Positions 2,077-38,727 of a stretch of 64,000 nucleotides of DNA are shown piece after piece. The position numbers were made by a program, and so were the translations under genes. The DNA is from Fidelibacterota bacterium. GTDB lineage: Bacteria; Fidelibacterota; UBA8477; JABMPR01. The stretch spans positions 167,553 through 231,552 of the forward strand of contig JAERTG010000023.1 of assembly GCA_016845065.1 (NCBI GenBank), read 5' to 3'. How positions within the stretch are numbered: the first letter of the stretch is position 1; each line of letters begins with the position of its first letter. The notes under the pieces were generated by a model. It was not told the DNA's origin. It did no database searches and was given only the letters and a program-made list of their open reading frames with translations.

Positions 2077-4506
2077 CTATTCGTAGCGTAAAGATTTCAC
2101 AGGATTGGCTACTGCTGCCTGATACGATTGCCAGGCTACTGTAAAAACTGCGACAACCATTGCAATCAACGAGGCTCCAACGAAAATCAGAATACTCATA
2201 TCAATCCGATAAGCATAATTTTGAAGCCATTCACCCATAGCATAGTAGGCTAGGGGAATCGCCAAAGCTACCGCAATCACCATGAGTTTGAGGGTATCCT
2301 TTGATAGGAGAAGAAGCACATTTGCTACAGAAGCTCCCAAGACTTTTCGGATACCAATCTCTTTGGTGCGCTTTTCAGCATTAAATGAGGCTAGTCCCAG
2401 GAGACCAAGGGTAGCAATAAATATCGCCAGCCCAGCAAACAAGAGGACAATATCAGCTGATTGTCGTTCAGTCCGATACAGTTCAGCATACAATTCATCG
2501 AAGTGAGAATACTCCAGAGCCTGTTCTCCAGCATAATTCTTCCATGTATTTTCTATGTGAGCCAGGATACCTTCCAGACGATTTGGATCATATTTAACAG
2601 TAACGAATTTGCCCCAGTTTGGTCTAAATCGAGCCGTTCCATCACCCATAAGAAACATTGCCATGGGACGAATCTCATTCTGTGGAGATTCGAAATGATA
2701 GTCTTCAACCACACCGATAATTTCAATGGGTACTGGATCCCTGCGGAAAAACGTCAGAAGGTCCTTGCCAACAGGATCCTCAACACCGAACGCCTTAACC
2801 GCAGCTTGATTCAGGATAACCCCATTGGTATCCGATCCTCGCTCTCTTGAGAAAAAGCGACCTTCGGCCATGCTGAGTTCATACACATCAGCATAATCGT
2901 GATCCACTAGGAAGCTGGCTACCAGTCGGGTTTCCTCAACACCGTTCACGACCATGGTAGAGGCATTTCCATTGACACCGTCTTCATTTCCTGGGATAAC
3001 CGTACTGTTACTTACTATAATTGCACCAGGATCATCCCTCAGACTGGCTTTAAAGGCCTGAATTGTACGTCCAATATCATCCGTTTTCTCTACAATCAGT
3101 AGATTATCAGGATTTAGTCCTAAATCCTTTGTCTGGATGAAATTCAGTTGATCTCTAATTATCATTGTCGAAATAAGCAGGGTTACCGATACTGAAAACT
3201 GAAAAATAACCAAACCGTTTCGTAACCAATTTCCACCCTTAGATGTAACTGTATTTCCTTTTAGAACCTTGAGTGGGTTGAAAGAGGACAACAAAAAAGC
3301 AGGGTAGCTTCCGGCAAGTAATCCCACTGGTATAACCCAAAGCAATATGATAGGTAGGTCCGATAAGCTCAATGTCAAAGGGGTATCAATCAATTCTGCA
3401 AACCAGGGTAAAATGGACTGTACCATCACGATCGCGAGTGAAAATGCAATAAAGGTCACAAATATGGATTCAGCAAGAAATTGGATAATTATTTGTCTGC
3501 GAGTCCCACCCAGGGTCTTGCGAATTCCTATTTCACGTGCGCGACTCATTGATCTAGCAGTAGATAAATTCATATAATTAATACAAGCTAGTAGAAGAAT
3601 AAAAATGGCTATATATCCAAATATTTTCACGGTTTGTCCATCACCATTCACCTCAAATTCCCCTAACAACTGTGAGTACAAATGAATGTCAGTTAAGGGT
3701 GTGAGAAAGAATGCGTATGCATCTCCCCTCTCTACTAATTGGTCAAATGATATACCGAGGAATTGCTGGACTTCTGGTCCCACGTACTTTTTGATCAGAT
3801 CAGGGAATTTTGCTTCGAACTCAGCTGCACTGGCACCATCAGCAAGCAGCAAATAGGTCTGAAAATTATTACTTAACCAGTTTGCATTACGATCAGGATT
3901 ATAAGAAACCATCGATCCCAGAAAGTCAAAATGCCAGTGTGAATTATCTGGGAATTCCTGAACCACGCCAGTCACGGTAAAATCGGTTCTATTATCAGAA
4001 TTGAGCACTTTCCCGAGAGGATCGACATCACCAAAGTACTTTTTAGCCATACGTTCAGTAATCACAACGCTAAAGGGTTGTGTCAGGGCCGTTTTAGGGT
4101 CGCCGAGTACCATGGGGATGGTGAATACGTCAAAAACCGTTGAATCTGCCTGGAACCAACGCTCCTCAGAAAAGACCTTATCTTCATAACGCAAGACTGG
4201 GAACCCTGTATTTCGGATGCGTGTATAGTTAACCACTTCAGGATATTCTTCCAGCATGGTAGGTCCAGCAGGAGCAGCCGAATTAGTCATTCTAAACTCA
4301 TTGTCCCCCAGTTTACCTTCAAGATTCAAACGATAAATGTTATCAGCACTGCCATGGAATCTATCAAAGCTTCTTTCATAATCGACAAACATCAGGATCA
4401 GGATACAAGTGGTCACACCGATAGCCAATCCTACTATATTGATAAAGGCATATAATCTTTGCTTAATCAGAGATCTAAACGCCACTTTTATATAACTTAA
4501 CCACAT
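2077..4506 (-). CDS. ABC transporter permease, FtsX/MacB-like (duplicated FtsX type, about 800 aa)
   Basis: The N-terminal TM helix and large periplasmic domains are repeated twice. The FtsX-like C-terminal 4-TM blocks are present. It lies downstream of an ABC ATPase and an HlyD adaptor in one operon. Confidence 0.8.
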   Translation of the reverse strand: MWLSYIKVAFRSLIKQRLYAFINIVGLAIGVTTCILILMFVDYERSFDRFHGSADNIYRLNLEGKLGDNEFRMTNSAAPAGPTMLEEYPEVVNYTRIRNTGFPVLRYEDKVFSEERWFQADSTVFDVFTIPMVLGDPKTALTQPFSVVITERMAKKYFGDVDPLGKVLNSDNRTDFTVTGVVQEFPDNSHWHFDFLGSMVSYNPDRNANWLSNNFQTYLLLADGASAAEFEAKFPDLIKKYVGPEVQQFLGISFDQLVERGDAYAFFLTPLTDIHLYSQLLGEFEVNGDGQTVKIFGYIAIFILLLACINYMNLSTARSMSRAREIGIRKTLGGTRRQIIIQFLAESIFVTFIAFSLAIVMVQSILPWFAELIDTPLTLSLSDLPIILLWVIPVGLLAGSYPAFLLSSFNPLKVLKGNTVTSKGGNWLRNGLVIFQFSVSVTLLISTMIIRDQLNFIQTKDLGLNPDNLLIVEKTDDIGRTIQAFKASLRDDPGAIIVSNSTVIPGNEDGVNGNASTMVVNGVEETRLVASFLVDHDYADVYELSMAEGRFFSRERGSDTNGVILNQAAVKAFGVEDPVGKDLLTFFRRDPVPIEIIGVVEDYHFESPQNEIRPMAMFLMGDGTARFRPNWGKFVTVKYDPNRLEGILAHIENTWKNYAGEQALEYSHFDELYAELYRTERQSADIVLLFAGLAIFIATLGLLGLASFNAEKRTKEIGIRKVLGASVANVLLLLSKDTLKLMVIAVALAIPLAYYAMGEWLQNYAYRIDMSILIFVGASLIAMVVAVFTVAWQSYQAAVANPVKSLRYE

Positions 4507-4539
4507 ATTACCACTCCTATTTGGTGTATAGTAGATCTC

Positions 4540-5229
4540 CTAGACATGAAAATTCCCGTTCAGGGTTTCATCTGCAATCTTACCATCGAATAAATTCACA
4601 GTCCGATTCCCGTACGCAGCATAGGCTGGGGAGTGTGTCACCATGACGATGGTTGTACCCTGCTTATTCAAATCCTTCAGCAAGTTCATCACTTCATCGC
4701 CATGTTGGGAATCAAGATTTCCAGTTGGTTCATCTGCGAGGACAATTTTTGGGTTGGTTATCAGGGCTCTAGATACAGCAACACGCTGCTGCTGTCCTCC
4801 AGAGAGTTGCTGCGGATAATGACTACTTCTATGGCCTACACCCATCTTTTCCAGCATGGTACTGACACGCTCTTTGCGCTCAGCAGTGGGAACGCCAAGA
4901 TAGAGTAAGGGTAGTTCAACATTTTCAAATACACTGAGCTCGTCTATGAGATTAAAGCTTTGGAATACAAAGCCAATATTCTCTTTGCGGAAATCTGCTC
5001 GTTGTGTTTCTGAGTAGTCACTTACTTCTTCTCCCAGAAAATGGAACTTACCTGAACTGGGATTGTCCAGTAAACCAAGGACATTCATCAAGGTGGACTT
5101 ACCACAACCTGAAGGTCCCATAATGGATACAAATTCACCCTCATTTATGTTGAGATCAATTTCGTTCAATGCTGTAGTTTCCACTTCGTCTGAGCGAAAT
5201 ACTTTATTGAGTTTTTCCGTCTTTATCAT
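4540..5229 (-). CDS. ABC transporter ATP-binding protein (MacB/LolD-like)
   Basis: Walker A is GPSGCGKST. The ABC signature is LSGGQQQRV. Walker B is [12 protein letters not shown]. Confidence 0.9.
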
Positions 5230-5252
5230 TGTATTCTCCTAGATTGATTTTT

Positions 5253-6509
5253 TCATGTTTCATTTTTAAAAAATAATTGCTCGTAGTCTCCAAACTGGTG
5301 GTAGCTACTTGTAATGACTTGATCACCAGGCTCGAGGCCTTCAAGAACTTCATAATAATCCTGATTTTGTCTCCCAAGCTTCACTTCACGCTTACTGGCA
5401 CTTTGACCACCTTCATCCAGGACATAGACCCATTGGCCTCCAGTTTCTTGATAAAATCCACCTCGTCTTAAAAGAATAGCTTCCGATGAGTTACCCAGCT
5501 CCAGACGCATGTGGATGGTTTGACCACGTCGAATGTCTTCTGGCTCAATCTCCTCAAAGCCGAGTTCAATGCGAAACTGACCGTTGACCACTTCAGGATA
5601 TATCTTGTTTAGAAGAACGGTGTATTCTTTGGAGCCTATACTAAAATGTGCAGGCTGGTTAAGCTGAACTCGAGTGATGAAGTGTTCATCAACGGGAGCG
5701 CTGACCTTAAATCCATCCAGGATATCTATCTGTCCCAGACGTTCTCCTCGAACCTTCGCTTCACCGATTTCTGCATTTAAAGAGGTTAATTGACCAGATA
5801 CTGGGGCAGTGATTACAAGATTATCCAAGTTTTGTTTCACGATTTCCATATTATCCTGCATGCGCTGCAGACCACTTTCCAACTGTTCCACCTGAACTTC
5901 CCGGTAGATTGAGTCCTGCTCAAATGATTGGAGTGTAAGAACGCGTTTTTTTACCAAAAATTGATAATCGTCCCTGCTGGATTCGTATTCTTCGCTGGAG
6001 ATCATGTCCTTATCAGCAAGTTTATCATTGCGCTCGTAGATACGTTTTGCTTGCAGTATTTGATAATCCAGATCCAATAATTGGGACTGGATGTTCAGGC
6101 GATTTTGCTGCATAGCTAATTTGGTATTACGAAGGTTATTGCTCTGCTGGAATAGCTCTGCTTCCCGATACATGATATCAAGCAATAAATTTGTATTTGC
6201 CAGACTGATTATCTTGTCACCTTTCTGAACATAAGTGCCTGCTTCGATATACCTTGATTCTACCCTACCACCTTCAATTGCATCAAGGAAATAAGTTTTG
6301 ATAGGAACTACGGCTCCGCTGAAAGCAATGAACTCCTGGAATTCTCCATTTTCTACGGTGCTGATGCCTATGCGACGATTGTCAATTTTTAAACTATCAT
6401 TACGCTTAGCACCCACGACAAGTGCTGAAATGATTACAATAGCCGCCCCTGCGATAAGAGTGTAGGGCTTATATTTGCTCCATGCAGATCTTTCAATTAT
6501 TTTATCCAT
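5253..6509 (-). CDS. HlyD-family periplasmic adaptor (membrane fusion protein) of a tripartite ABC efflux system
   Basis: There is a single N-terminal TM helix, long coiled-coil heptads and a C-terminal beta-barrel region. It is the first gene of the operon with the ABC ATPase and permease. Confidence 0.75.
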   Translation of the reverse strand: MDKIIERSAWSKYKPYTLIAGAAIVIISALVVGAKRNDSLKIDNRRIGISTVENGEFQEFIAFSGAVVPIKTYFLDAIEGGRVESRYIEAGTYVQKGDKIISLANTNLLLDIMYREAELFQQSNNLRNTKLAMQQNRLNIQSQLLDLDYQILQAKRIYERNDKLADKDMISSEEYESSRDDYQFLVKKRVLTLQSFEQDSIYREVQVEQLESGLQRMQDNMEIVKQNLDNLVITAPVSGQLTSLNAEIGEAKVRGERLGQIDILDGFKVSAPVDEHFITRVQLNQPAHFSIGSKEYTVLLNKIYPEVVNGQFRIELGFEEIEPEDIRRGQTIHMRLELGNSSEAILLRRGGFYQETGGQWVYVLDEGGQSASKREVKLGRQNQDYYEVLEGLEPGDQVITSSYHQFGDYEQLFFKNET

Positions 6510-7201
6510 TATTTTCCCAAACTAGCTGTTTGCACCCTCACGAATGCTCAATTTGTCTCGAATTTCGTTTCGCTTCGAATGCAGGTTTCGAGTAAGTGTC
6601 ATACCATCCTTTATCACAAGGCCCATGCCAAGGTTGCAGAAGACAACCCTATGTTACTGTTTCATATTTGGTTAGGATATATTCTGACAGCAAAGTCAAA
6701 ATGAATTCGCCAATATTATTACTCATATCGATATAGAATGCATATCAATTATATATGGTTATTCAATATTATTGGATCAATCGTTCTATTCCATGTGAGA
6801 GCTGTTTATAAAAAGAAAATAGTCCCGGAAATATCCGAGACTTGATGTCACCGAGAATGGTATTTCCGGTGAATAATTAATTAATGGATTATTGTAATAA
6901 GCTGATACATGTGAAAAAAGAAAGATGATTCGCCTTTGGATCATGGACTTTCTACGATTGTCAAGGTGGTCAGATTGCGATGGCAGAGATGAAATACTCA
7001 CCAGCAAATAGTAATAGACTACCCCTGACTGGATAGGAGTAAGAAACAAGATTTGAATCTATAGCTGACAGAATTCGAGGATCAAGGGTGAAACCTACAG
7101 AAAGCTCAGAGTCCTCGAATAGTTCAGACTCACTACTCAATTCAGCAAAGGATTCATCATGTCTACATTAGGATCTGAGAGAAATATATTGGGATTGCAC
7201 C

Positions 7202-7885
7202 CTACTTTGAAAGAGATTCATCAGAATATAGATTAATTTTATCCACATCATCCAAACCGGAAAGTTCCTTGACCAGGTCATTACCTTTTGATGAGTTTTT
7301 AAGCGTTACATAATAGGATATTTCGTACTGCTGACTACTTCCCAATGATCTTACGTTGATCATGGTGTGTGATCTGCAGTGTGACTGTATGATGCCTAAA
7401 TAGAGTGGTTCTCCCCCATTATGATCTCCGCTATAAGCAAACTGCAACAAATTTTCATCACTTCTGTGGGAACCATAACCAATTTTACTCATAACAAGAA
7501 GCACTACACTGATGCTTAATGTGCCAATTATTGCTATTTGAGCTAATCCTACGCCAGCAGCCAAACCTATGGTCAAAGAAAAGAATATAAATACGATGTC
7601 CATGGGATCTTTTACTGCAGTCCTAAAGCGGATGATAGACATGGCGCCTACTAACCCGAAAGCCCTAGCAAGATTATTTCCAATAACAATAATGACCACG
7701 GTTGTTATCATAGCCAATACTACAAGGGAATTGGAAATGCTCTTGGAATATGAAGCACCACCAAAAGTCATTTTATATGTCTGTGCGATAACCAAACCGC
7801 ACAAAAATGCTACGAGTAAGTTCAACAACACATCCCCAGTACGGATATTCATGTCCATAAGTGACTGTATATCTAGTAATTGCAT
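7202..7885 (-). CDS. DUF4956-like membrane protein
   Basis: Multiple TM helices are followed by a conserved soluble tail. It is tightly linked (11-nt gap) to a VTC-domain gene, the usual DUF4956 partner. Confidence 0.5.
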   Translation of the reverse strand: MQLLDIQSLMDMNIRTGDVLLNLLVAFLCGLVIAQTYKMTFGGASYSKSISNSLVVLAMITTVVIIVIGNNLARAFGLVGAMSIIRFRTAVKDPMDIVFIFFSLTIGLAAGVGLAQIAIIGTLSISVVLLVMSKIGYGSHRSDENLLQFAYSGDHNGGEPLYLGIIQSHCRSHTMINVRSLGSSQQYEISYYVTLKNSSKGNDLVKELSGLDDVDKINLYSDESLSK

Positions 7886-7896
7886 ACTTTCTCTTT

Positions 7897-8664
7897 CTAG
7901 TAATGACTCATAGAAACAATTTCATGTTTGGTGCAATCTCCAACATGTCGATAATGGGCATCTATTCCCCTTACGTATTTGGAGTAAGCCTGTTTTCTGA
8001 GATTGAACTTACGGATGACGCGTCGGAACCATTCAGGCATAGGGTTCTCAGATTTGTATTCTAAAACGAATTCATTTTCGAGAAAAGTAATCAGTTTTTT
8101 CTCCTCATAGAGATCACCCAGCCCTGGGAACATCAACGATCGAATTTGGCTATCCAGAGTAATACGGTCAGAATGATTAAATTTTCCGATATACGCTTCC
8201 CTCGTGTAGGTCACCAGGTTCACAGGAACACGTGAGCTACGCTTCAAGTAAAAGAGAAATTTACTAGCAGTTTTCTTGGATTTCGGAAAATCCTTGCGAT
8301 AAGGAAGAATGTTGTCCATTTCCTCGCCTGCAAACAGCTTATCCACATCAGCATATCTCAAGGGGGTTCTATCTTTTGAAATAAACGTATTATTCTTCCA
8401 CTTTATTTCCAAGAACACTTCACTATCTGCATTAACCTGGTTGTAGCCTCTCATGCGTAGTTTCTTGCGCATTTGAAGTCCTGCATGTTTCTCGTAATAA
8501 TCCTTCAATTCAAAAGTGTCAAAATAAATAGATCGAATCTCGTAAATATTGGATTTCTGCAGGGCCCGATGATTGTCGGCAATCACATAGGGGGAAATAG
8601 CTTTGCGAATCTCATCCATTGAATACATGGGGATGACATACTTATTTTCCTGACGACCGGGCAT
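7897..8664 (-). CDS. VTC-domain (CYTH-like polyphosphate polymerase domain) protein
   Basis: Motifs such as KYVIPM…, IRSIYFDT… and LEIKW… resemble bacterial VTC-domain proteins. It sits in an operon with the DUF4956 gene. Confidence 0.5.
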   Translation of the reverse strand: MPGRQENKYVIPMYSMDEIRKAISPYVIADNHRALQKSNIYEIRSIYFDTFELKDYYEKHAGLQMRKKLRMRGYNQVNADSEVFLEIKWKNNTFISKDRTPLRYADVDKLFAGEEMDNILPYRKDFPKSKKTASKFLFYLKRSSRVPVNLVTYTREAYIGKFNHSDRITLDSQIRSLMFPGLGDLYEEKKLITFLENEFVLEYKSENPMPEWFRRVIRKFNLRKQAYSKYVRGIDAHYRHVGDCTKHEIVSMSHY

Positions 8665-8673
8665 CGCTACTTC

Positions 8674-9720
8674 CTAGAACAATTCGCTTAGCATTTGATA
8701 TACACTCTTCGAAGCAAAACTCACTGACGCTTCAAGTATTTGACCAGGAACAAGAACACCATCAGAATTGTCAATCCGAATTCGAACCAAAATTAATTGC
8801 TCGCTGCCTACTTTTAGGATTTGATCGTCTACTTGCAATTGCTCTGAGCTAACCGACTGCTGATAATTTGGACCCATCAGGGTTAACTCGGCTGTCCATT
8901 CGACCGTGCTATGGGAGCCGCCCTGAATAGGTAGGACAGCCACGAGAGTATCCACTTTCTCAACACTCATAAGGGTGTCTTCGGAAAGTGGGAATAATAA
9001 TTTTCCAGAAATTGGACTCACAAAAGTCATTTTGGTCAATACATCGCGTGCCAGTTCTAATTTTTTCTCCTCATCAGCTATTTGAGACCGGAAAACATCC
9101 AACTTTCTGGTTTGGGCACCGCTCAATGCTGATCCAAGATCTGCCTCAGCTATTGAAACTCTGATTGCATCAAGTCTTTCCCGACGCAGCTCAATATCAT
9201 ATTCCTGTTGAGGTATAATATTCCCATCAAGCAGGCTTTTGGATCTGTCTAGAATTTTCTGTTGCTCTTCAAGGCGTGCCCTGGTATAAGTCAGCCTGAG
9301 TCTGGCAGCTTCAATCTCAGTTTCCTTGCTACCGGACTGCTCAAATTCGAGTGAGGCTTTCAGAGTACTAATATTTCCTTCGAGGCTCACAATTTTATCT
9401 GCAAGTGTAGAAGAATACAACCAAGCCAGGGTATCCCCCTCTGTCACCATACTCTGAGAAATATTCGAATTGGTACGATAAACAACCAAGCCACCACGAT
9501 CTGGAACTAAACTTGTAGAACTAATAGTACGGTTATTCCATAAATCCTTATGATAAGTGGAGTAGGCACCACTTCCGTTCGTAATAACCTGATATTGACT
9601 CGAAGCAGTGACCACAGCTTTTTGTGACGTTCCCTGTGGAAATGGTACAAACAATAGCACCACAAATAATACTGCTGCAATTACAACATATGGGGTTGTT
9701 CGCTTGTGCTTTACAATCAT
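8674..9720 (-). CDS. HlyD-family secretion/adaptor-like protein
   Basis: There is an N-terminal TM anchor and a long coiled-coil region. A lipoyl/beta-barrel-like C-terminus carries an …SPISGKL… motif. It sits 9 nt upstream of the VTC gene. Confidence 0.5.
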   Translation of the reverse strand: MIVKHKRTTPYVVIAAVLFVVLLFVPFPQGTSQKAVVTASSQYQVITNGSGAYSTYHKDLWNNRTISSTSLVPDRGGLVVYRTNSNISQSMVTEGDTLAWLYSSTLADKIVSLEGNISTLKASLEFEQSGSKETEIEAARLRLTYTRARLEEQQKILDRSKSLLDGNIIPQQEYDIELRRERLDAIRVSIAEADLGSALSGAQTRKLDVFRSQIADEEKKLELARDVLTKMTFVSPISGKLLFPLSEDTLMSVEKVDTLVAVLPIQGGSHSTVEWTAELTLMGPNYQQSVSSEQLQVDDQILKVGSEQLILVRIRIDNSDGVLVPGQILEASVSFASKSVYQMLSELF

Positions 9721-9846: not shown

Positions 9847-11808
9847 TCATGGAAGGTAAATCATTTTCTTGATTTGAATGTTATCACCTGCAGAAGCGCT
9901 AATGAGATACAATCCTGCAGATGCATACACTCCCTCAGAATCAATTCCGTTCCATGTTATATGCCTTTGACCACTTACTTCATCAATTTTGAATCTACGT
10001 AATATACGACCTCTCACATCAATTATGTCAATTTGAATCAAATTTGCTGATATGTTCGTGATGGGAATCGTAGTATCTCCATTAAACGGGTTGGGAAAGT
10101 TTTGACCCAGACTAAAAACATCAGGTAGTTCTGGTGCTGTCCAGGAAGAGTCCAGGGTAAATTCCATGGACTTCATATTGAATCCGGCTTCATATATTTC
10201 AACAGTTAGCAAATGACTCCCAGCACTCATTGATATATCATCAAGTTGCACAGGTAACCAATTATGCCACCCACCGGTTACTGGAGTCTGTATGGCATCC
10301 TCCATCAACTCACCATCAAGGTAGAGCCGCAAGAGACCTGAGGAGTTTTGACTGGCAACTTCAATATCAAGGCTATAACTACCTCCCTGGTCAACTTCAA
10401 TGGTATATAGAAGCCATTCGCCATCCTCAGTCCATCCAATAATGGGATCACCGTGAGTGTCCATTTCTATATCCACACCATCATTTCTGTACTGATACCC
10501 TGAATTCCACGCAGTATAATCGTTCCAGTGCACGGTTTGGTAAACATGATCATTGTATGAAACACCCTGATGCCCGATATCATAGTCTGCGAATAGGATT
10601 TTTCCGGGAACGAGGAGGTCTTTAAAGGGTTTGTTTTGGTATGCAAATTCGGGATCAAAAAGTGAAGCAACCACACCTGGACGATAAGTGCAATTTTCTG
10701 TTTTGATGTTCTCTGCCAGCTCCATTAGTATAGCCTTGGCAGCTTGGATTGAAGGCTTGTTTTCTCCAGTATCCCAATAATGAATCAACTGACTATAATT
10801 TGTGGGACGGGCAATTGAATACGGGCTTGTTATAGTATCTACTTTTTTGGTTGTCCACCAACACCAGCCCACATTGTTAGCCTCAAATAACTGGACAGCA
10901 TCGTGGAACCATGGATTTGAATTCTCACCAGTTTCACTCATCCATAGCGGAACGTCATAACTGTTGCGCATATCGAGATGATTGTCAATAGAATGAGGTC
11001 CATTTTCGCTCCAATACTTATGGAAACTATATGACATATTATCAACAAAAGGTGGCGTCAACCCGGTAAAGTCTGTTGCATACCAATTACCTTCGATAAA
11101 CAGTATGTGATTGTTATCAACTGCCCGGACTACCTCCGCTATATCTGTATACAGTCTTCGGAATGCCTGGCTGCTCACTCCCTCAGGGAGGACTGGTTCA
11201 TTGAGGAGATCATATCCACCAATCCACGGTTCATCGGCGTATCTGGTTGCAATTGCTTCCCAAATCATCATCGTGTGCGATTTATTGGAGTCTGCCAACC
11301 ACAAACGAGCCGTTCCATCGCTGTCACTAATTGGTCCATGATTCTGCCCGCCAGGGGCACAATGCATATCCAAAACAACATGCATTCCAACATCAGAGCA
11401 CCAGGCAATCAGAGAATCAGTAACTTCATATCCCCATTCATTAGGTACTCCACGTGCCTTGGAAAACATATTATAGTGAAATGGCATCCTAACATGATCA
11501 AAGCCCCATAGGGCTAGTTCTGCAATATCCTCTCGCGTTACATAGTTATCATGATATGCTGCGTAAAACTCATCTGCTCCGGACTCTCCAATCACATCGA
11601 CTATTTGTGCGCGGATACTTGTGGGGGATCCCATTCCAGGAGTGTGTAACATATAGCCTTCTGGAACCAGCCATCCACCAAGACCCATACCTCTCATCAG
11701 AGCCGGATTACCATTTGCATCTACAATGCTCTGGCCTTCAGCATGAACAAATGCCTCCAGAGGGGAAAAAATCACAATCAGGACTAACAATAAGGGCAAG
11801 AGCTTCAA
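9847..11808 (-). CDS. glycoside hydrolase family 5 (Exg-like beta-glucanase motifs) with a C-terminal beta-sandwich module and T9SS C-terminal sorting domain
   Basis: A signal peptide is present. GLGGWLVPEGYM matches yeast GH5 exo-1,3-beta-glucanase. The acid/base motif is DLLNEP and the nucleophile motif is MSETGE. The C-terminus is …FPNPFN… CTD. Confidence 0.8.
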   Translation of the reverse strand: MKLLPLLLVLIVIFSPLEAFVHAEGQSIVDANGNPALMRGMGLGGWLVPEGYMLHTPGMGSPTSIRAQIVDVIGESGADEFYAAYHDNYVTREDIAELALWGFDHVRMPFHYNMFSKARGVPNEWGYEVTDSLIAWCSDVGMHVVLDMHCAPGGQNHGPISDSDGTARLWLADSNKSHTMMIWEAIATRYADEPWIGGYDLLNEPVLPEGVSSQAFRRLYTDIAEVVRAVDNNHILFIEGNWYATDFTGLTPPFVDNMSYSFHKYWSENGPHSIDNHLDMRNSYDVPLWMSETGENSNPWFHDAVQLFEANNVGWCWWTTKKVDTITSPYSIARPTNYSQLIHYWDTGENKPSIQAAKAILMELAENIKTENCTYRPGVVASLFDPEFAYQNKPFKDLLVPGKILFADYDIGHQGVSYNDHVYQTVHWNDYTAWNSGYQYRNDGVDIEMDTHGDPIIGWTEDGEWLLYTIEVDQGGSYSLDIEVASQNSSGLLRLYLDGELMEDAIQTPVTGGWHNWLPVQLDDISMSAGSHLLTVEIYEAGFNMKSMEFTLDSSWTAPELPDVFSLGQNFPNPFNGDTTIPITNISANLIQIDIIDVRGRILRRFKIDEVSGQRHITWNGIDSEGVYASAGLYLISASAGDNIQIKKMIYLP

Positions 11809-11832
11809 CGTATTAATTCCATTTACTGTTAA

Positions 11833-12942
11833 TCATTTTAGCATTAATACCTTTTGAATAATTTGCTGATCCATTGCATTCACCATCACAATGTAGGATC
11901 CGCTGGAAACCGTTTTGCCAGAATCATTTTTACCATCCCAAACCAGCGTTTGTACACCTGTAGGATTTGACGATATGGCTTTTGAGTAGATTTTTTTGCC
12001 AACCGTATCGAAAATCTCAAATGTTGCATTACCCTGGGAAAAATTTTGCAATATCAGATTCGTATTCGCATTAAAAGGATTGGGGTATGCAGGAGAAAGC
12101 TTCATATCCTCGGGAAGGCTTATTAAGCTGTCGTTGAGTGAAAGAGCAGGTCCACTGTACCCTGTATTAGTTGGGGTTGTCATGCACAGAACCATATAAC
12201 CATTGTTAAACACGACATTCTCTGGAATAAAATCACAGTTGTTCCCATTCCAGGTATGAGTTGCTTTCTGCCACCGGTCAGTATCCCAACTATCAAAATC
12301 ATCATGCCAAACAGGTGTAAAACCATTGTTGGTTCCTGTAGTCCCATCTCCAGGTGTATACGCAGCATAGCTTACCCAATCGTAATAGGCATAAATTGGT
12401 AGATTTGTCGGGTTAAAGGGTCCTACCCAGTCAGGGTAGTCAGGTTGCCAGATATTCATCATTAATTTCTGAGATCGATTTAGTTGTTCGATATGCCCAT
12501 ATTGTTGTCGATAGACCTCCACTCCATCAACAAACCAGGCTACATACCATGGCGTCCACTCGAATGCATAATCATGAAACACAACTGCTGGGTTATAACC
12601 GAGAGTAACTGAATGTTCATGGTTGGTTTGCCAATCTGTAATTGTATTGAACTGCACTCGATTGATATAGCGACCAAGAAATTCAATATCAATTTCATTC
12701 CAATCCTGAATCCCGGCACCTCCGAGTTCGTGGTAGGTAAACAAACTTGAAACCGTTCCGGAAAATGGAGCCGATTTTATTCTCGCTTCAAAGCGGCCGT
12801 ACAGGAAGGTTTCAATTGTTCTGTATTCACCACCACGATAGTCCTTAGCCTGAAGGAACAATACTGGGGATAAAATCAAGATCATGGTCGTTGCTCTCAT
12901 CAATTTCACATAATGAGCGATGTTCATATAACCCTTATTCAT
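11833..12942 (-). CDS. GH16 endo-beta-1,3(4)-glucanase with T9SS C-terminal sorting domain
   Basis: The GH16 catalytic motif EIDIEFLG is present. The C-terminus is …YPNPFNANT… CTD. Confidence 0.8.
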   Translation of the reverse strand: MNKGYMNIAHYVKLMRATTMILILSPVLFLQAKDYRGGEYRTIETFLYGRFEARIKSAPFSGTVSSLFTYHELGGAGIQDWNEIDIEFLGRYINRVQFNTITDWQTNHEHSVTLGYNPAVVFHDYAFEWTPWYVAWFVDGVEVYRQQYGHIEQLNRSQKLMMNIWQPDYPDWVGPFNPTNLPIYAYYDWVSYAAYTPGDGTTGTNNGFTPVWHDDFDSWDTDRWQKATHTWNGNNCDFIPENVVFNNGYMVLCMTTPTNTGYSGPALSLNDSLISLPEDMKLSPAYPNPFNANTNLILQNFSQGNATFEIFDTVGKKIYSKAISSNPTGVQTLVWDGKNDSGKTVSSGSYIVMVNAMDQQIIQKVLMLK

Positions 12943-13069
12943 TGTGTAAAATCCTGCAATATTGGGTTGGTTGTTATCGTAGGTAAATTGTTATGATTTA
13001 GTGATTCAGGGTAACACGTTGCTCCAGGAAATACATACCTGTTTGGTTTGATTAATCCCACAACTCCCC

Positions 13070-14077
13070 CTACTGGAATAGCCTTACGTAATCTACTTCC
13101 ATGGTTTGGGGGAAAAGTGTAGACGCGTCAGGGTTACCAGGCCAGTCTCCACCTACAGCTACATTCAATATAAGATGAAATTCCTGATCAAATGGCGCTG
13201 GGTAGTCGCCGCCAACTGTAAACCAACTACTTAGTGTCTGAAACAGAACATCGTCAACATACCACCTCATTTCATCCGCCTCCCATTCAAAGGCAAAGGT
13301 GTGAAAGGAGTCAGAAAAATTTCCAGTCGGCAGTACATATGAGGTCCCCGTGGAGCTTTTGTCAGGGTAATAGTTTCCATAATGAATGGTGCCATATGTG
13401 CGTGTTATATCATGACCCAGGAACTCCATGATATCAATCTCACCACTTACAGGCCATCCTCCGTAGACGGAATAAGTGGGCATCATCCATATAGCAGGCC
13501 AGAGTCCTTGTCCTCGAGGTAGTTTTGCTCGGATTTCAATTCGCCCATACTTCCAGTCAACTTTTTGTGCAGTATTCATCCTTGCTGAATTATAAGCAGG
13601 GGCATTTGGATCAAAGGGATTCTCTTTCCTTGCTGTTAAATAAAGGTAGCCGTTTGTCAAGCCAGAATTACCAGGATCCTGGGTATATGACTGCAACTCA
13701 TTGTTGACATAGCCTGGCCACCACTCTTCATGGTTCCATTTTGTCGTATCAATACTACTACCATTAAATTCATCATTCCAAGTCAAACTCCAACCCACAG
13801 GAATTTCGGATGACTTCAGACAATTTCCGTCATCTACAGTGGCAATTGGATCGAAGTTGGCAGAACTTGAATCCGTACAGCCAAAATATTGACAGCTTCC
13901 ATCATCCTCGGTGGCTGTACTATCAAAATTTATTGAATTGGAATCCATACAACCATAGATCACTTCCACAATTGGGTCTTCAGGAGGTGTTGGAGATTTA
14001 CATGCTACTAACAAACCGATTGAAAGAATTGAAATTATAATCAGTTTTGGACTAATCAGATTCAAGTTTACTCCCAT
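13070..14077 (-). CDS. GH16 laminarinase-type lipoprotein with two short Cys-bracketed N-terminal mini-repeats
   Basis: The GEIDIMEFLG motif carries the Met beta-bulge typical of laminarinases. The lipobox is LLVAC. The start was trimmed to an internal ATG (14077) to remove a 113-nt overlap with the upstream gene. Confidence 0.8.
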   Translation of the reverse strand: MGVNLNLISPKLIIISILSIGLLVACKSPTPPEDPIVEVIYGCMDSNSINFDSTATEDDGSCQYFGCTDSSSANFDPIATVDDGNCLKSSEIPVGWSLTWNDEFNGSSIDTTKWNHEEWWPGYVNNELQSYTQDPGNSGLTNGYLYLTARKENPFDPNAPAYNSARMNTAQKVDWKYGRIEIRAKLPRGQGLWPAIWMMPTYSVYGGWPVSGEIDIMEFLGHDITRTYGTIHYGNYYPDKSSTGTSYVLPTGNFSDSFHTFAFEWEADEMRWYVDDVLFQTLSSWFTVGGDYPAPFDQEFHLILNVAVGGDWPGNPDASTLFPQTMEVDYVRLFQ

Positions 14078-15572: not shown

Positions 15573-15593
15573 CCCTGCTATATCATTAACTCA

Positions 15594-20227: not shown

Positions 20228-20228
20228 T

Positions 20229-23096: not shown

Positions 23097-23199
23097 AGGA
23101 AACTTTATTTTTGGTAAATTCACTTTCAGCGAAATCAAAGAAGCAGCTAGCCCCGGCCACACTCACATGTTTCCGGGGCTAAACTGCAGTTATTTCACC

Positions 23200-26628: not shown

Positions 26629-26686
26629 TATGCTTCCTCCTTCTTTGGTTATGTGAATCATTATAATTCCTTCATTCCTAACATAT

Positions 26687-30068: not shown

Positions 30069-30071
30069 ATT

Positions 30072-33283: not shown

Positions 33284-35131
33284 ATGTTTACGAGATCGAT
33301 ATTTCTGAAAATTTTTGTGCTTGGATTCATGCTTCAACTAGTAGTCACCTGCAATTCCACCGAACCAATTGTCAAACATGTATCCGTGACGGGGAAAAGT
33401 GTAGAGAACATTGTTGAATTGATGACATTGGCAGAAAAAGTTGGACAAATGACTCAGGCTGATAGGCGCTATCTAATTGATGAAGCTGATATTACGGAAT
33501 TGCACTTAGGATCCCTTCTCAGTGGAGGTGGATCAACCCCTGAAATTAATAATCCCACATCCTGGGCTGATATGGTTGATGGTTATCAGGCTCTAGCTGC
33601 CAAATCTCGTTTGGGAATTCCTCTCATGTACGGTATTGATGCAGTCCATGGACACAGCAATGTAGTGGGTGCTACTATCTTTCCACATAATATTGCCCTT
33701 GGAGCCACAGGTAATCCTGAACTGGTAAAGGAAATTGCCCACATCACCGCAAAAGAAGTTCGAGCAACGGGGATTAATTGGACATTTGATCCCTGCGTCG
33801 CTAACTCAAGAGACGAACGTTGGGGACGCGCCTATGAGTCCTATGGAGAGGACCCAGCTCTCCTAGCCGCTCTCGGACAGGCCCAGGTTGAGGGTTATCA
33901 GGGAGCATCACTTAGCGCTCCTGATGCAATTGTGGCATGTACGAAACATTACATTGGAGATGGCGCTCCCACCTGGACAACAGGCAATAATGGTAAAATT
34001 GATCGCGGAGATGCTCAAATTTCCGAAGATGAATTAAGAGCCCTTCATTTACCACCCTACCAGGCTGCTATTCAAGGTGGGACAGCAACCATCATGGCTT
34101 CATATAACAGCTGGAATGGTGAAAAACTTCATGGGCAAAAATATCTCATGACCGATGTACTCAAAGGAGAGCTTGGGTTTCAGGGTTTCATCGTAACAGA
34201 TTGGGCGGGCATTGATGAGCTCCCAGGTGATTATAAGAGTGATATAGTTGAGTCAATCAACGCAGGTGTTGATATGGTTATGGTTCCTGGAGATACGAGC
34301 AAAGATGGGTACACATACAGAGAATTTATCACCAAGTTGACCGAAGCCATCAATGAAGGCTTGATAGAAATGTCTCGCATCAATGATGCTGTAACCAGAA
34401 TCTTGAATGTTAAAAAGAGTATGGGTCTGTTGGATGCGCCCTACAGCAACGATCGCAATCTCATCTCCCACGTAGGTTCACCCGAGCATCGAGAAGTGGC
34501 CCGGCAAGCTGTCCGTGAATCTGTAGTATTGCTAAAGAACAACAGCGTCTTACCATTATCCAAAGAGCTCTCAACACTTGTTGTAGCTGGTCGTGGGGCC
34601 AATGATGTTGGCATGCAATGTGGTGGCTGGACCATTTCCTGGCAGGGTGGTATGGGCGATATCACTCCCGGTACTACCGTCTTGGAAGGCGTTCAAGCAA
34701 GCGTTTCTTCATCAACCCAGGTGATTCACTCGCCTGATGGAACAGCTGCTGCCAGTGCAGATGCTGTAATAGTTGTTGTTGGAGAGACACCCTATGCTGA
34801 AATGCATGGAGATAGGGATAATCTAGTCCTATCAGACGAAGATTTGGCAGTTATTAACACAGTAAAGACCAGTGGAAAACCTATGGTGGTCGTGCTCCTT
34901 TCAGGACGTCCTATAATCGTCACCGATATCATTGAAGAGGTGGATGCTTTGCTAGCTGCATGGCTGCCTGGAACAGAAGGCAATGGAATCTCCGATGTGA
35001 TTTTTGGTGATTATTCACCTACTGGAAAACTCTCAGTGACCTGGCCGAAAGACATGAGTCAAATACCAATTAACCAGGGTGATAATAATTACTCACCTCT
35101 CTTTCCTGTAGGATATGGAATGAGTTATTAG
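33284..35131 (+). CDS. GH3 beta-glucosidase lipoprotein
   Basis: The lipobox is VVTCNS. GH3 N-domain motifs are present (KVGQM, GIDAVHG). The catalytic nucleophile motif is GFIVTDW. A C-terminal alpha/beta sandwich domain follows. Confidence 0.85.
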   Translation: MFTRSIFLKIFVLGFMLQLVVTCNSTEPIVKHVSVTGKSVENIVELMTLAEKVGQMTQADRRYLIDEADITELHLGSLLSGGGSTPEINNPTSWADMVDGYQALAAKSRLGIPLMYGIDAVHGHSNVVGATIFPHNIALGATGNPELVKEIAHITAKEVRATGINWTFDPCVANSRDERWGRAYESYGEDPALLAALGQAQVEGYQGASLSAPDAIVACTKHYIGDGAPTWTTGNNGKIDRGDAQISEDELRALHLPPYQAAIQGGTATIMASYNSWNGEKLHGQKYLMTDVLKGELGFQGFIVTDWAGIDELPGDYKSDIVESINAGVDMVMVPGDTSKDGYTYREFITKLTEAINEGLIEMSRINDAVTRILNVKKSMGLLDAPYSNDRNLISHVGSPEHREVARQAVRESVVLLKNNSVLPLSKELSTLVVAGRGANDVGMQCGGWTISWQGGMGDITPGTTVLEGVQASVSSSTQVIHSPDGTAAASADAVIVVVGETPYAEMHGDRDNLVLSDEDLAVINTVKTSGKPMVVVLLSGRPIIVTDIIEEVDALLAAWLPGTEGNGISDVIFGDYSPTGKLSVTWPKDMSQIPINQGDNNYSPLFPVGYGMSY

Positions 35132-35172
35132 ATGTTGCCTAATAGAAATGAAGGAATTATGCTTAAGTTGAT

Positions 35173-38100
35173 ATGATCCCTCAACCAATGGCATTATTCA
35201 GAGCAGCTGGTTTCCTGGTAGCAATAGTACCCTCTCTTCTCTTGGGTCAATCCTTGATTCTTAATGAAATTGTTGCTTCTAACCGAGCAAGTTTATACGA
35301 TGAGGATGGTGACACACCAGATTGGATTGAAATATACAATACTTCCTCATCTGCAGTCAGCTTACAAGGTTTTGGTCTTTCTGATGATATTAACAATCCA
35401 TATAAATGGATATTTGGAGCTGGTGAAATAGATGGCGATAGTCATGCCATTATTTTTGCATCAGATAAGGACAGGCAAGCCTTAAACCTAAACTGGGACC
35501 TCATATTCGAAGAAGGTTCTCTGTGGCGCTATTTTGTTGGTACTTCAAATCCACCTTCAAATTGGAACTCATTGAATTTTAATGAAAATCAATGGCTAGA
35601 GAGTGTCAGCGGGTTTGGTTACGGGGACAATGATGATAATACGATAATTCCGTCGACCATGTCCGTTTATCTGCGGAACACATTCACTATCTCTGATACC
35701 TCCTCGGTCCCCGGTCTCCTTTTTCACATCGATTATGATGATGGATATGTCGCCTACCTCAATGGTGTTGAATTCTCCAGAGAAAACATGGGTGAGCCAG
35801 GAAGCGAGGTAAATAATAACACACCGGCAACAACCTATACCGAACCATCATTGCCTGACAATGTTGATCTACCCTTTACCCTCATCTCCAGTGATTTAAT
35901 GGTGGAGGGTGACAACGTCATTGCAGTTGAAGTGCATAATCACAGCCTGTCCTCATCTGACATGACTGCAATCCCATTTCTGAGTATAGGCGAACTGGAT
36001 ACACCTGATTCTCCATTACCTTCCTTTTTAGAGTCACCTGCTCAAAGCCAATTTCACACCAATTTTAAAGTTAATAGTGATGGTGAGTTGGTCATGTTAA
36101 CGAGTCCTGATGGTGGGAGTCTAGATTCAATTCGAGTACCTGAGCTGCCCTCAGACATCAGTTGGGGTAGAGAGCCTGATGCCAGTGGAAATATGTTCTA
36201 TTTCAATCCACCAACTCCTGGTGAGACGAATGTGGGAGGATTCACTGTCCCTGCCGAACCACCTGTTCTGTCTCCTGGACCGGGATTTTATAACTTCGGT
36301 ATCTCGCTGAGCATGGGCGCAGTGCCACAAGGGCGGGTTTATAAATATACACTGGATGGAAGCATTCCGAATCTGAGCTCAGCAACCTATACCACACCGT
36401 TATCTATCACTCAAACCACAGTAGTTCGAGTCTTAACATGCGCCCCTGATGGCACGAATCCCACTCTAAATTCATTTAGTTATTTCATTAATGAGGAACC
36501 CGACCTACCTGTCATGTCTCTCATTTTTGAACCGGGTGCATTTTTTGATAATGATACTGGACTGTATGTGATGGGTTCAGATGCATCTCCATCCTTCCCC
36601 CATTTTGGAGCAAATTTCTGGGAAGACTGGGAAAGGCAAGTTCACGTCGAATATTTTGATGGTGGGAATGAGCTCAGCTATGCGGCTTCTGCAGGCGTGA
36701 AAATATTTGGGGGCTGGAGTAGAGGGAATCCACAAAAGTCTCTTTCATTATTTGCCCGTGGACGCTATGGAACCAGCAAATTTGAGTACCCTTTCTTTCC
36801 GGACCTGGGCATCGATAAATTCGAGGCTATTGTGCTCAGAAATTCTGGAAATGATTGGAATATGTCAGGCTATAGAGATGGTTTTATGACAAGCCTTGTC
36901 TCTGAGCGGGATGTTGACAAGCAAGCGTTTCAGCCAGTCGAAGTCTATTTAAATGGTGACTATTGGGGAATTTATAACTTGCGAGAGAAGGTAAACGAGC
37001 ATTTTGTGTCAAGTCATCACGATGTTGATAATGATGATATCGATTTATTGGCCTTGGATGGGAATGAGGTGGTGCATGGTGAAAACAACCATTATGTGGA
37101 CTTAATTGATTACATCAACTCTCACACACTTAACTCTGATCTCGATTTTGAGTACGTTGAAGAACGCGTGGATATTGATAATTTTATTAATTACCAATTG
37201 GCCCAGATCTACTTCGATAACCAGGACTGGCCTGGAAATAATATCAAGTTTTGGCGCTCCAGGCTGCCCGGTGGCAAATGGCGTTGGATATTGTATGATA
37301 CTGATTTTGGTTTTAGCATCTGGAGTAATAATAACTATATAAGAAATACTCTGGAGTTTGCCACAGATCCAAATGGACCAGATTGGCCCAATCCACCATG
37401 GTCTACTCTCCTCCTTCGGAAATTTTTAACGAACCCAGGGTTCGAGCGGAATTTCATCCTCACCGCTTGTGACCTTTTAAATCAGCCATTCATATACGAG
37501 CAGGTTGAGTCAGCACTCAATGAGCATCAACAATGGTTATTACCATCCCTTCCAGACCATATTTCGCGGTGGAATCACATGAGTCTTCCCAACTGGTACA
37601 ACGAAGGGATGATCATGGATAACTTTGCTTTGAATAGACCCTATTATATGCGCAATCACTTTCGAAGTAAATTTAACCTTGGTGCAGACAGTGAACTTCA
37701 GGTCAATGTTGAACCAGCAGGCGCTGGAAAAGTGCGTGTCCATTCCATCGTCCCGGATAACTATCCATGGGTGGGAACTTATTTTTCATCGGTTCCTGTT
37801 GACGTCCGCGCCATTGCCCTTCAGGGATATCAATTTTCACACTGGCAGAATAGGCTGGTAACCGATGTGGATTTGACCATTAGCATGGCATCGGATGTTG
37901 AATTAACGGCTATATTTGTTCCTGTTTCTCCCGATGATGGTGCTCTGGTTATCAACGAAATCAATTATAACTCCCTGAATGATTCTGACACCAAGGATTG
38001 GATCGAATTATTTAATGGCACGCCTGAGGCTGTCGATCTGACAGGATGGGCAGTCAGCGATGACAACGATGATAACTGGTTTGTGTTGTCCGAAATATCA

Positions 38101-38727
38101 CTTGCTCCTGATGCATATTTGATTGTGACTAGCGATAGCCTCGCCTATAGAAGTATTCACGGGAGTGATGCTCGGATTGTTGGTGATCTGGATTTCAATT
38201 TCAGCAATGGAGGAGAATTGATTCGCCTCTTTAACTCAGATCAAATAATTGTGGATAGTGTACGCTATGATGATGAGGATCCATGGCCTACTGAGCCTGA
38301 TGGAGATGGTCCTACATTAGAGTTGACATTCCCTACTCTGGACAATGGTTTGAGTACGAGTTGGGCTGTTTCAGATAACCTGGGGACGCCTGGTGCTCAA
38401 AATGGCAGCTTTGCTGTTCCATCAGCATTCAACAATGACAACGGACCTACGGAATTTCGAATCGGAATGGCCTTCCCAAATCCATTCAATGCAATGATCA
38501 CCATCCCTTACACCGTTGCCGAAATCGGGTTATTTCAGATCGATATATTTGATCTCAGAGGTCGCATGATTCATTCAGAGAGCATCAATTCATCACGAAG
38601 TGGTTCAGGAAATTATCATTGGGATGGAAGGAATGAGCATGGGCTGGCACAAAGTTCTGGAATGTACGTGGTTCGATTAACTCAAAACGAACTTACTGCC
38701 AGTATAAAAATCGCGCTCCTCCGATAG
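35173..38727 (+). CDS. giant CotH-kinase-like protein with two lamin-tail domains and T9SS CTD
   Basis: Two LTD motifs are present (LILNEIVASN…DWIEIYN, LVINEINYNS…DWIELFN). The central region has CotH-like blocks (LRNSGNDWN…VYLNGDYWGIYNL). The C-terminus is …FPNPFNAM… CTD. Confidence 0.55.
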   Translation: MIPQPMALFRAAGFLVAIVPSLLLGQSLILNEIVASNRASLYDEDGDTPDWIEIYNTSSSAVSLQGFGLSDDINNPYKWIFGAGEIDGDSHAIIFASDKDRQALNLNWDLIFEEGSLWRYFVGTSNPPSNWNSLNFNENQWLESVSGFGYGDNDDNTIIPSTMSVYLRNTFTISDTSSVPGLLFHIDYDDGYVAYLNGVEFSRENMGEPGSEVNNNTPATTYTEPSLPDNVDLPFTLISSDLMVEGDNVIAVEVHNHSLSSSDMTAIPFLSIGELDTPDSPLPSFLESPAQSQFHTNFKVNSDGELVMLTSPDGGSLDSIRVPELPSDISWGREPDASGNMFYFNPPTPGETNVGGFTVPAEPPVLSPGPGFYNFGISLSMGAVPQGRVYKYTLDGSIPNLSSATYTTPLSITQTTVVRVLTCAPDGTNPTLNSFSYFINEEPDLPVMSLIFEPGAFFDNDTGLYVMGSDASPSFPHFGANFWEDWERQVHVEYFDGGNELSYAASAGVKIFGGWSRGNPQKSLSLFARGRYGTSKFEYPFFPDLGIDKFEAIVLRNSGNDWNMSGYRDGFMTSLVSERDVDKQAFQPVEVYLNGDYWGIYNLREKVNEHFVSSHHDVDNDDIDLLALDGNEVVHGENNHYVDLIDYINSHTLNSDLDFEYVEERVDIDNFINYQLAQIYFDNQDWPGNNIKFWRSRLPGGKWRWILYDTDFGFSIWSNNNYIRNTLEFATDPNGPDWPNPPWSTLLLRKFLTNPGFERNFILTACDLLNQPFIYEQVESALNEHQQWLLPSLPDHISRWNHMSLPNWYNEGMIMDNFALNRPYYMRNHFRSKFNLGADSELQVNVEPAGAGKVRVHSIVPDNYPWVGTYFSSVPVDVRAIALQGYQFSHWQNRLVTDVDLTISMASDVELTAIFVPVSPDDGALVINEINYNSLNDSDTKDWIELFNGTPEAVDLTGWAVSDDNDDNWFVLSEISLAPDAYLIVTSDSLAYRSIHGSDARIVGDLDFNFSNGGELIRLFNSDQIIVDSVRYDDEDPWPTEPDGDGPTLELTFPTLDNGLSTSWAVSDNLGTPGAQNGSFAVPSAFNNDNGPTEFRIGMAFPNPFNAMITIPYTVAEIGLFQIDIFDLRGRMIHSESINSSRSGSGNYHWDGRNEHGLAQSSGMYVVRLTQNELTASIKIALLR

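Follow-up and report, generated by a model that had tools for sequence, protein, structure and literature searches.

A candidate bacterial module for VTC-type polyphosphate synthesis and export, with a dedicated periplasmic adaptor, in a Fidelibacterota genome

What is the function of a compact operon in which a gene for a VTC-domain protein, related to the polyphosphate polymerase of yeast, lies between the genes for a putative periplasmic adaptor and for a membrane protein of the DUF4956 family? The question is raised by three genes found in a 64,000-nt stretch of the genome of a Fidelibacterota bacterium (assembly GCA_016845065.1, contig JAERTG010000023.1, positions 167,553 to 231,552 of the forward strand; this stretch is referred to as the window, and positions are those of the window). 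All three open reading frames (ORFs) lie on the minus strand: ORF1 (9720..8674, 348 aa) is the first gene of the trio, ORF2 (8664..7897, 255 aa) the middle one and ORF3 (7885..7202, 227 aa) the last one, with spacers of just 9 nt (8665-8673) between ORF1 and ORF2 and 11 nt (7886-7896) between ORF2 and ORF3. The original prediction, made from the sequence, had described them as a tightly packed, co-oriented HlyD-like, VTC and DUF4956 operon of unknown function; coordinates and spacers were reproduced exactly from the ORF list and by reading the sequence, and the packed three-gene arrangement turned out to be kept in loci where the first protein is down to 25-35% identity.

In the reviews consulted, VTC-type polyphosphate polymerases are considered eukaryotic, and PPK1 and PPK2 are given as the bacterial enzymes. 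The trio is not a sequence anomaly: we describe it here as a well-defined candidate for a bacterial machine of VTC-type polyphosphate synthesis and export. An association of VTC and DUF4956 genes with genes for CotH kinase-family proteins was already known; what is new is that the diderm form of the VTC-DUF4956 module includes a dedicated periplasmic adaptor.

Identity of the three proteins

ORF2 belongs to the VTC family (PF09359), with a Pfam E-value of 9.3e-38 and 130.5 bits against a cut-off of 23, the match extending over model positions 2-233 of 235. It is a stand-alone, soluble VTC domain, with no SPX domain, membrane segment or signal peptide. When compared with the structures in PDB, the single sequence gave only a marginal match to Vtc2, and a profile was required: one built from 16 sequences of the ORF2 family recovered the catalytic domain of yeast Vtc4 (3g3q, E 2.5e-16) and matched, among solved structures, only Vtc4, Vtc2 and Vtc3, and no other class of triphosphate tunnel metalloenzymes (TTM). 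Alignment to 8i6v_E and 3g3q places the full set of Vtc4 tunnel residues in ORF2, K200 corresponding to K8, R264/R266 to R70/R72, K281 to K88, K294 to K97, Y359 to Y153, R361 to R155, R373 to R167, E426 to E202 and S457/K458 to S228/K229; E6, E86 and K204 also belong to the ORF2 tunnel, and each of these positions is invariant in 87 or 88 of 88 homologues. Within this set fall the positions altered in R264A/R266A/E426N, the standard catalytically dead mutant of Vtc4 (PMC9911596). The presence of a complete and invariant tunnel set is therefore the pattern of an active enzyme under strong constraint, and ORF2, judged by these residues, is probably a Vtc4-like polyphosphate polymerase.

The same residues may be read differently. 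ORF2 might use some other triphosphate substrate, as a tripolyphosphatase, an NTP-dependent transferase or a cyclase, and not polymerize phosphate at all, in which case the adaptor and the DUF4956 protein would export its product or signal with it, possibly modifying a glycan or a protein together with CotH. TTM enzymes have tunnel residues in common and diverse activities (PMC9582702), and no characterized bacterial VTC-domain enzyme was found in the literature searched. Nonetheless, we consider this reading decidedly unlikely, given that matches of the ORF2 profile to solved structures are confined to Vtc4, Vtc2 and Vtc3, and that the Vtc4-specific residues, including the equivalent of K200, are invariant in the ORF2 homologues. 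The non-catalytic Vtc2 is not known to have a lysine equivalent to Vtc4 K200.

Although ORF2 shares with the eukaryotic VTC complex both the Pfam family and the tunnel set, it stays outside that complex, because it lacks the SPX sensor and the VTC-type membrane domain; it is a separate soluble protein, and the membrane protein encoded next to it, ORF3, is unrelated to the VTC membrane domain, being MgtC-like and provided with an ACT-like domain.

ORF3 is a member of DUF4956 (PF16316; E 3.3e-10, 40.4 bits against a cut-off of 30.6), a model matched by all 38 of its aligned relatives. Since Pfam thus recovers both VTC and DUF4956 for these reading frames, the two assignments made in the original prediction stand. 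Similarity to the MgtC/SapB/YhiD proteins covers the membrane domain as well as the ACT-like domain at the C-terminus. The NCBIfam MgtC/SapB model NF007431 matches ORF3 at residues 73-219 (E 4.5e-5; 23.2 bits, far under the cut-off of 214) and 34 of the 38 relatives, with a best value of 2e-11, while Pfam MgtC (PF02308) matches all 38 relatives below threshold (14.6 bits against 31.4). By these alignments ORF3 is a remote, full-length homologue of MgtC/SapB that does not reach the curated MgtC thresholds; DUF4956 proteins differ from MgtC/SapB/YhiD not only in scoring far under the cut-offs, but also in having an invariant motif of their own and an obligate VTC neighbour.

In the AlphaFold2 (AF2) model of ORF3, whose mean predicted local distance difference test (pLDDT) score is 76.8, four to five membrane helices (residues ~16-135) are followed by a C-terminal domain (145-221) of beta-alpha-beta-beta-alpha-beta order, ACT-like and with a weak structural likeness to ACT/ferredoxin-like folds; the single sequence retrieved nothing meaningful from PDB. 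The invariant motif, NNLARAFGLVGAMSIIRFRT..KD..DI, spans residues 70-97 and would lie, by the positive-inside rule, at or near the cytoplasmic face. Conservation in DUF4956 is highest in a basic motif, RFRT..K, predicted to lie at a loop on the cytoplasmic side.

Assignment of ORF1 required structure prediction. It has no Pfam match at E<0.01, its NCBIfam adaptor matches are sub-threshold (E 3e-9, 36 bits against a cut-off of 393), and the single sequence had no match in PDB. Its AF2 model (pLDDT 84.5) features the elements expected of adaptors, in the expected order: an N-terminal membrane anchor (~8-24), as in MacA, EmrA and HlyD, a beta-rich domain, a long alpha-hairpin made of two helices of roughly 60 residues each (104-165 and 171-230), and a beta-barrel domain (232-338). 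Foldseek comparison of the model with PDB returned MacA (3fpp, E 1.7e-11), then EmrA and AcrA, with probability 1.0; for MacA, EmrA, AcrA, MexA and ZneB, values range from 1.7e-11 to 1e-7 over 315-375 aligned columns. Similarly, a profile made of diverse members of the ORF1 family matches adaptor proteins exclusively, at 1.6e-8 to 1e-5 (ZneB 1.6e-8, MacA 3.9e-8), and 16 of 40 members reach Pfam HlyD_3. The term HlyD-like, used in the original prediction, is therefore correct at the level of the superfamily, on account of the fold, the family profile and the HlyD_3 matches of the relatives, although the Pfam HlyD models miss ORF1 itself; predicted fold and family profile together confirm ORF1 as a divergent membrane-fusion, or periplasmic adaptor, protein.

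At the predicted tip of the hairpin ORF1 carries R159-x3-L163-x6-P170. The family consensus at position 170 is serine, which gives the RLS motif: the arginine is found in 68 of 69 family members, the leucine in 69 of 69 and serine or threonine at position 170 in 54 of 69. RxxxLxxxxxxS at the hairpin tip is the motif by which MacA, AcrA and HlyD bind TolC, its third position being reportedly the most permissive (PMC3391258), and a similar docking of ORF1 to a TolC-like channel may be envisaged.

The family is a large one. An exhaustive search collected 451 cluster representatives (clusters at 50% identity) at E<=1e-30 and 1011 at E<=1e-10, nearly all of them ~350 aa long and aligned end to end. 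A word-indexed search had delineated a tiny, lineage-restricted family of 34 proteins, a picture overturned by the exhaustive one.

Conservation of the gene set and its relation to the outer membrane

The gene neighbourhood was analyzed in 80 loci around VTC relatives, one genome per species, and in seven metagenome loci; all ORFs were scored with purpose-built hidden Markov models (HMMs), and counts are given per 88 loci. Sampled loci are designated by L numbers and adaptor-family members by P numbers.

A DUF4956 gene lies directly 3' of the VTC gene in 82 of the 88 loci. The pair is thus recurrent, as had been proposed, and still functionally uncharacterized: in the literature searched we found no functional study of a bacterial VTC, DUF4956 or adaptor protein of this type, and no description of the adaptor as part of a VTC-DUF4956 module. 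The adaptor gene is found directly 5' of VTC, on the same strand, in 70 loci, usually at a distance of 0-12 nt or with a short overlap. These loci, of the Fibrobacteres-Chlorobi-Bacteroidetes (FCB) superphylum, come from Marinimicrobia, Ignavibacteria, Bacteroidales, Lentimicrobiaceae and Cyclobacteriaceae, and also from Rhodothermales, Latescibacterota, KSB1, Calditrichota and Krumholzibacteriota; the names borne by near-identical proteins assign the window itself to Marinimicrobia/FCB-group bacteria. When loci are sampled through the adaptor, the same set emerges, VTC being the next gene in all six family members whose contigs continue (P0031, P0033, P0034, P0299, P0340 and P0311).

In five of the remaining loci the upstream sequence is too short for the adaptor to be judged, and 13 have room but no adjacent adaptor. 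Eight of these 13 are from Chloroflexota/Anaerolineae, and account for all loci of that phylum in which the gene would have fitted; another three are VTC paralogues of Bacteroidetes, lacking DUF4956 as well (L041, L054, L086). The last two are L017, where an adaptor gene is found 7 kb off, and L007, where a CotH-VTC-DUF4956 set is located within a polysaccharide-synthesis cluster. Chloroflexota are generally held to have no outer membrane, a view that is debated. The Gram-positive cotH-VTC-DUF4956 sets described in the literature likewise name no adaptor (PMC12345266). Presence in diderms and absence from both Chloroflexota and the Gram-positive sets therefore fit a part needed only where there is an outer membrane. 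The adaptor is a defining, lineage-wide part of the diderm module and not an incidental neighbour.

One feature of the window could have favoured incidental adjacency. A MacAB-type exporter (2077-6509, minus strand), composed of a 418-aa HlyD_3 adaptor, an ABC ATPase and an 809-aa MacB-type permease, is located 0.7 kb downstream of DUF4956 on the same strand, as is the case in L002 and L013, with no TolC gene visible. ORF1 might then be an adaptor of this pump (6509..2077), or a mere neighbour within the glucan-related genes that precede the trio. The pump, however, has an adaptor of its own, ORF1-type genes adjoin VTC in loci which nearly all lack MacAB genes, and both the spacing of the two genes and the sampling from the adaptor side speak for a fixed pair. 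Incidental adjacency is hardly credible, and the neighbourhood data effectively refute the assignment of ORF1 to the MacAB-type pump.

ORF1 shares with MacA, EmrA, HlyD and AcrA the full-length fold and the long alpha-hairpin, and its family, for the most part, the RLS tip motif, whose third residue is proline in the clade of ORF1. Besides falling below the curated thresholds, it differs from them in its partners, which are a DUF4956 protein and a soluble enzyme, no ABC, RND, MFS or PET transporter being encoded with the trio and no outer-membrane factor being encoded nearby.

A few other genes recur around the module. In one lineage a small YbjQ_1 (PF01906) gene follows DUF4956 (L090:8512-8841, L091:2630-2959), and fucosidase, GH2 and GH141-like genes flank the trio, another setting of glycan degradation. 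Other recurrent downstream neighbours (L019:11632-13800, L063:7795-10950, L066:11444-12190) encode four-lamin-tail proteins of the type IX secretion system (T9SS), lacking a CotH domain, and "SdiA-regulated/phytase-like" beta-propellers, which may be phosphatases. One member of the adaptor family, P0299 (L088:5-1432), carries an N-terminal cytoplasmic FHA (phosphothreonine-binding) domain and is followed by a fragmented VTC gene; the FHA domain hints at a phospho-dependent control of the module.

The CotH link and the surroundings of the trio

The original prediction had stated that VTC/DUF4956 pairs are often annotated next to CotH genes in Bacteroidetes, and had pointed to a giant CotH protein some 27 kb from the trio. 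The gene is real by Pfam (35173..38727, plus strand, 1184 aa; CotH E 2.8e-46); it encodes, in this order, a lamin-tail, a CHB_HEX, a CotH, a second lamin-tail and a T9SS C-terminal sorting domain. It lies 26.5 kb from the trio, on the opposite strand, and the window therefore does not contain an adjacent CotH-VTC-DUF4956 set. The association was borne out by the sampled loci: CotH is found beside the module or within ~10 kb of it in at least 25 of the 88, a lower bound, many loci ending early. CotH giants of 1129-1346 aa, with the architecture of the window protein, directly follow DUF4956 in L003, L020, L022, L025, L028, L032, L034 and L062; in other loci CotH is a few genes off (L007, L017, L024, L029, L035, L043, L045, L047, L052, L060, L064, L066, L070, L075, L078). 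The CotH proteins adjacent to the module are secreted, as they carry T9SS sorting domains. These counts are Pfam-checked locus counts; those of a CotH HMM were discarded, its third iteration having drifted to lamin-tail and T9SS-tail domains. A phmmer search of PDB with the window CotH domain found nothing.

The window CotH protein is 42% identical, over 1161 aa, to that of L045, a Neomarinimicrobiota genome with gene order adaptor-VTC-DUF4956-GH3-CotH, and 39% identical to that of L022, encoded directly after DUF4956. The gene immediately upstream of the window CotH is a GH3 glycosidase by Pfam (33284..35131, plus strand), 38% identical to the GH3 of L045. In L045 and L075 a GH3-CotH pair comes right after the trio, and GH3 precedes the module in L025 and L028; Pfam identifies the +2 gene of L045 and the -2 gene of L025 as GH3. 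Since the pair is intact in the window (33284..38727) and lies behind the trio elsewhere, the simplest reading is that an ancestral trio-GH3-CotH cluster was split; this organization suggests that the split occurred in the lineage of the window. The CotH giant is probably the surface component which works with the trio. In the closest Marinimicrobia loci (L001, L002, L008-L016) no CotH was found within 10 kb of the trio. In two Bacteroidales loci (L054:7693-10765, L086:7555-10765) a T9SS-tailed CotH is directly followed by one of the VTC paralogues; L054 and L050, the latter with a complete trio, derive from one assembly, JADHVR01, and two VTC enzymes per genome are therefore possible.

Gram-positive bacteria provide the closest described arrangement, the pel accessory set cotH-VTC-DUF4956(-DUF4832), as in the Streptococcus intermedius genes SIR_1594/1593/1592. 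The authors of that report (mBio 2025) did not find the cotH-VTC-DUF4956 synteny outside pel loci (PMC12345266); in the present sample, VTC-DUF4956 with CotH is widespread outside them. The window trio resembles the Gram-positive set in the order of VTC and DUF4956 and in the link to a secreted CotH. It differs in having an extra adaptor gene in front, in its location within a beta-glucan utilization locus, not beside pel genes, and in its distant CotH, which is a large protein secreted by T9SS.

The beta-glucan locus is a long series of co-oriented genes (9847-28294, minus strand) upstream of the trio. It includes a GH5-CBM6 gene with a T9SS tail, separated from ORF1 by a 126-nt spacer, two GH16 genes, genes for 506-aa and 1187-aa proteins with no Pfam match, for a PorV-like protein, a TonB-dependent receptor, a 1164-aa T9SS protein and an SSF symporter. 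The order GH16-GH16-GH5-trio is constant in the same closest Marinimicrobia loci (L001, L002, L008-L016). One of the GH16 ORFs (13070-14164, 364 aa, TTG start) overlaps the upstream 506-aa ORF (14052-15572) by 113 nt, and translation of this GH16 probably begins at a site downstream of the TTG. The glucan locus and the GH3-CotH pair are separated by minus-strand genes (28623-32908) for a sigma-54-dependent response regulator, a histidine kinase and a solute-binding protein, which could control either of the two.

On the 3' side, ORF3 is followed by a 690-nt gap (6510-7201) with no convincing gene. An 87-aa ORF found there has zero relatives, and the DNA shows weak similarity to parts of L009 and L013. 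No promoter or terminator signal above shuffled expectation was found between 6400 and 10000, and a terminator-like hairpin (6842..6821) does not exceed chance expectation. Searching the whole window for Rfam families and tRNAs gave no match.

A possible export route and its meaning

How might the three proteins work together? We tentatively propose that the trio is a synthase-coupled, trans-envelope polyphosphate export machine tied to surface CotH, a reading that we hold to be quite possible, if short of probable. ORF2, the cytoplasmic Vtc4-like enzyme, would polymerize polyphosphate from ATP. ORF3, its inner-membrane partner, would take the growing chain at the cytoplasmic face and move it across the membrane, in a role that would parallel that of the yeast VTC membrane domains by analogy and not by homology. 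ORF1, anchored in the inner membrane and provided with a hairpin of ~90 Å, would bridge the periplasm to a TolC-type channel encoded elsewhere. The product would then reach the cell surface, where its partners would be CotH kinase-family proteins exported by T9SS, for example the giant at 35173; it could serve as their phosphoryl donor, as their substrate or primer, or as a polyanionic component of surface or matrix. Established by the data are the assignments to families and folds, catalytic-residue conservation, the operon organization with its phyletic distribution, and the link to CotH; that the product is polyphosphate, that DUF4956 translocates it, that ORF1 docks to a TolC-like channel and that CotH uses the product are inferred.

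In yeast, polyphosphate synthesis is coupled to membrane translocation (PMC9911596), an arrangement mirrored by a cytoplasmic polymerase with a dedicated membrane protein. The predicted destinations differ, being the vacuole in yeast and, through the adaptor, the periplasm or the surface in the case of the trio. Polyphosphate or triphosphate chemistry at the envelope was named as one possibility in the original prediction, and agrees with the conservation of the Vtc4 catalytic residues and with an adaptor that spans the envelope. The TolC-family gene found directly after DUF4956 in one locus, L067, also speaks for export. In S. intermedius, deletion of the DUF4956 or of the cotH homologue lowers Pel-dependent aggregation (PMC12345266); this is an extracytoplasmic phenotype and therefore lends indirect support to export. 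A polyanion could plausibly act there by cross-linking the cationic Pel polymer.

It is also conceivable that nothing is exported. The VTC protein would then make or degrade polyphosphate or triphosphate in the cytoplasm, for intracellular phosphate and energy homeostasis; the DUF4956 protein would be an MgtC-like regulator or anchor, its ACT-like domain sensing a metabolite, and the adaptor a periplasmic scaffold or sensor. This would suit a full-length MgtC/SapB homologue, MgtC acting by binding F1Fo ATPase and PhoR and not by transport (cited in PMC12345266). MgtC, a regulator of ATP synthase and PhoR, differs from the DUF4956 protein in having no known enzyme partner. An ACT-like domain in DUF4956 suggests regulation by a ligand, and a conserved outer-membrane channel gene was not found in the 88 loci. 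On the other hand, homeostasis leaves unexplained why a full-length adaptor with a conserved TolC-docking tip motif is fixed to the pair in diderms and absent in Chloroflexota, why the module is repeatedly adjacent to secreted CotH proteins, and why its streptococcal homologues have an extracellular aggregation phenotype. We regard purely intracellular homeostasis as rather unlikely.

Several observations weigh against the export machine. Polymerase, rather than hydrolase, activity of ORF2 is assumed from residue conservation, and an assay of any bacterial VTC-domain protein was not found in the literature searched. The membrane part of ORF3 has no match among solved structures, DUF4956 has no homology to the membrane domain of the VTC complex of yeast, and the MgtC family, which includes its nearest relatives, is known for regulators of F-ATPase and PhoR and not for channels (PMC12345266). 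In the window ORF1 and its clade, the third RLS residue is a proline (Pro170) and not a serine. The search for a conserved outer-membrane channel gene in the loci produced a single case out of 88, a TolC-family outer-membrane efflux protein (OEP; E 2e-33) encoded directly after DUF4956 in a Cyclobacteriaceae locus (L067:11440-12792). The contrast between diderms and monoderms involves related genomes, and the counts are uncorrected for phylogeny. Finally, CotH-VTC pairs with neither DUF4956 nor adaptor are found in some Bacteroidales genomes (L054, L086).

A more specific version of the export reading concerns the use of the product. Secreted CotH proteins reside outside the cell, where ATP is not normally available. 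Polyphosphate threaded through an MgtC-like protein and a conduit of the membrane-fusion protein-TolC type might be the phosphoryl donor for T9SS-secreted CotH kinases; we consider this doubtful, but with surface polyphosphate as donor it would become clear how kinases of bacteria function in an extracellular space devoid of ATP. The trio would then be the diderm form of a principle of bacterial secretion not recognized before.

Should the export machine prove real, it would represent a third bacterial route to polyphosphate, of VTC type, and the only route designed to deliver the polymer beyond the cytoplasm. Two large orphan families would also gain a concrete function: DUF4956, for which one search gave more than 3,400 relatives, and the ~350-aa adaptor, with at least 451 clusters. 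Periplasmic adaptor proteins would acquire an inner-membrane partner of a new kind. The model also suggests, in a form that can be tested, why secreted CotH "kinases" are found in bacteria that do not sporulate, in cellulosomes and in pel biofilm loci. The fixed position of the trio in Marinimicrobia beta-glucan loci hints that surface phosphate chemistry is linked to the foraging of polysaccharides in the dark ocean. Given the abundance of Marinimicrobia (SAR406), a module working as proposed would make these bacteria a source of extracellular polyphosphate in seawater, with a possible bearing on marine phosphorus cycling and on the secreted CotH kinases.

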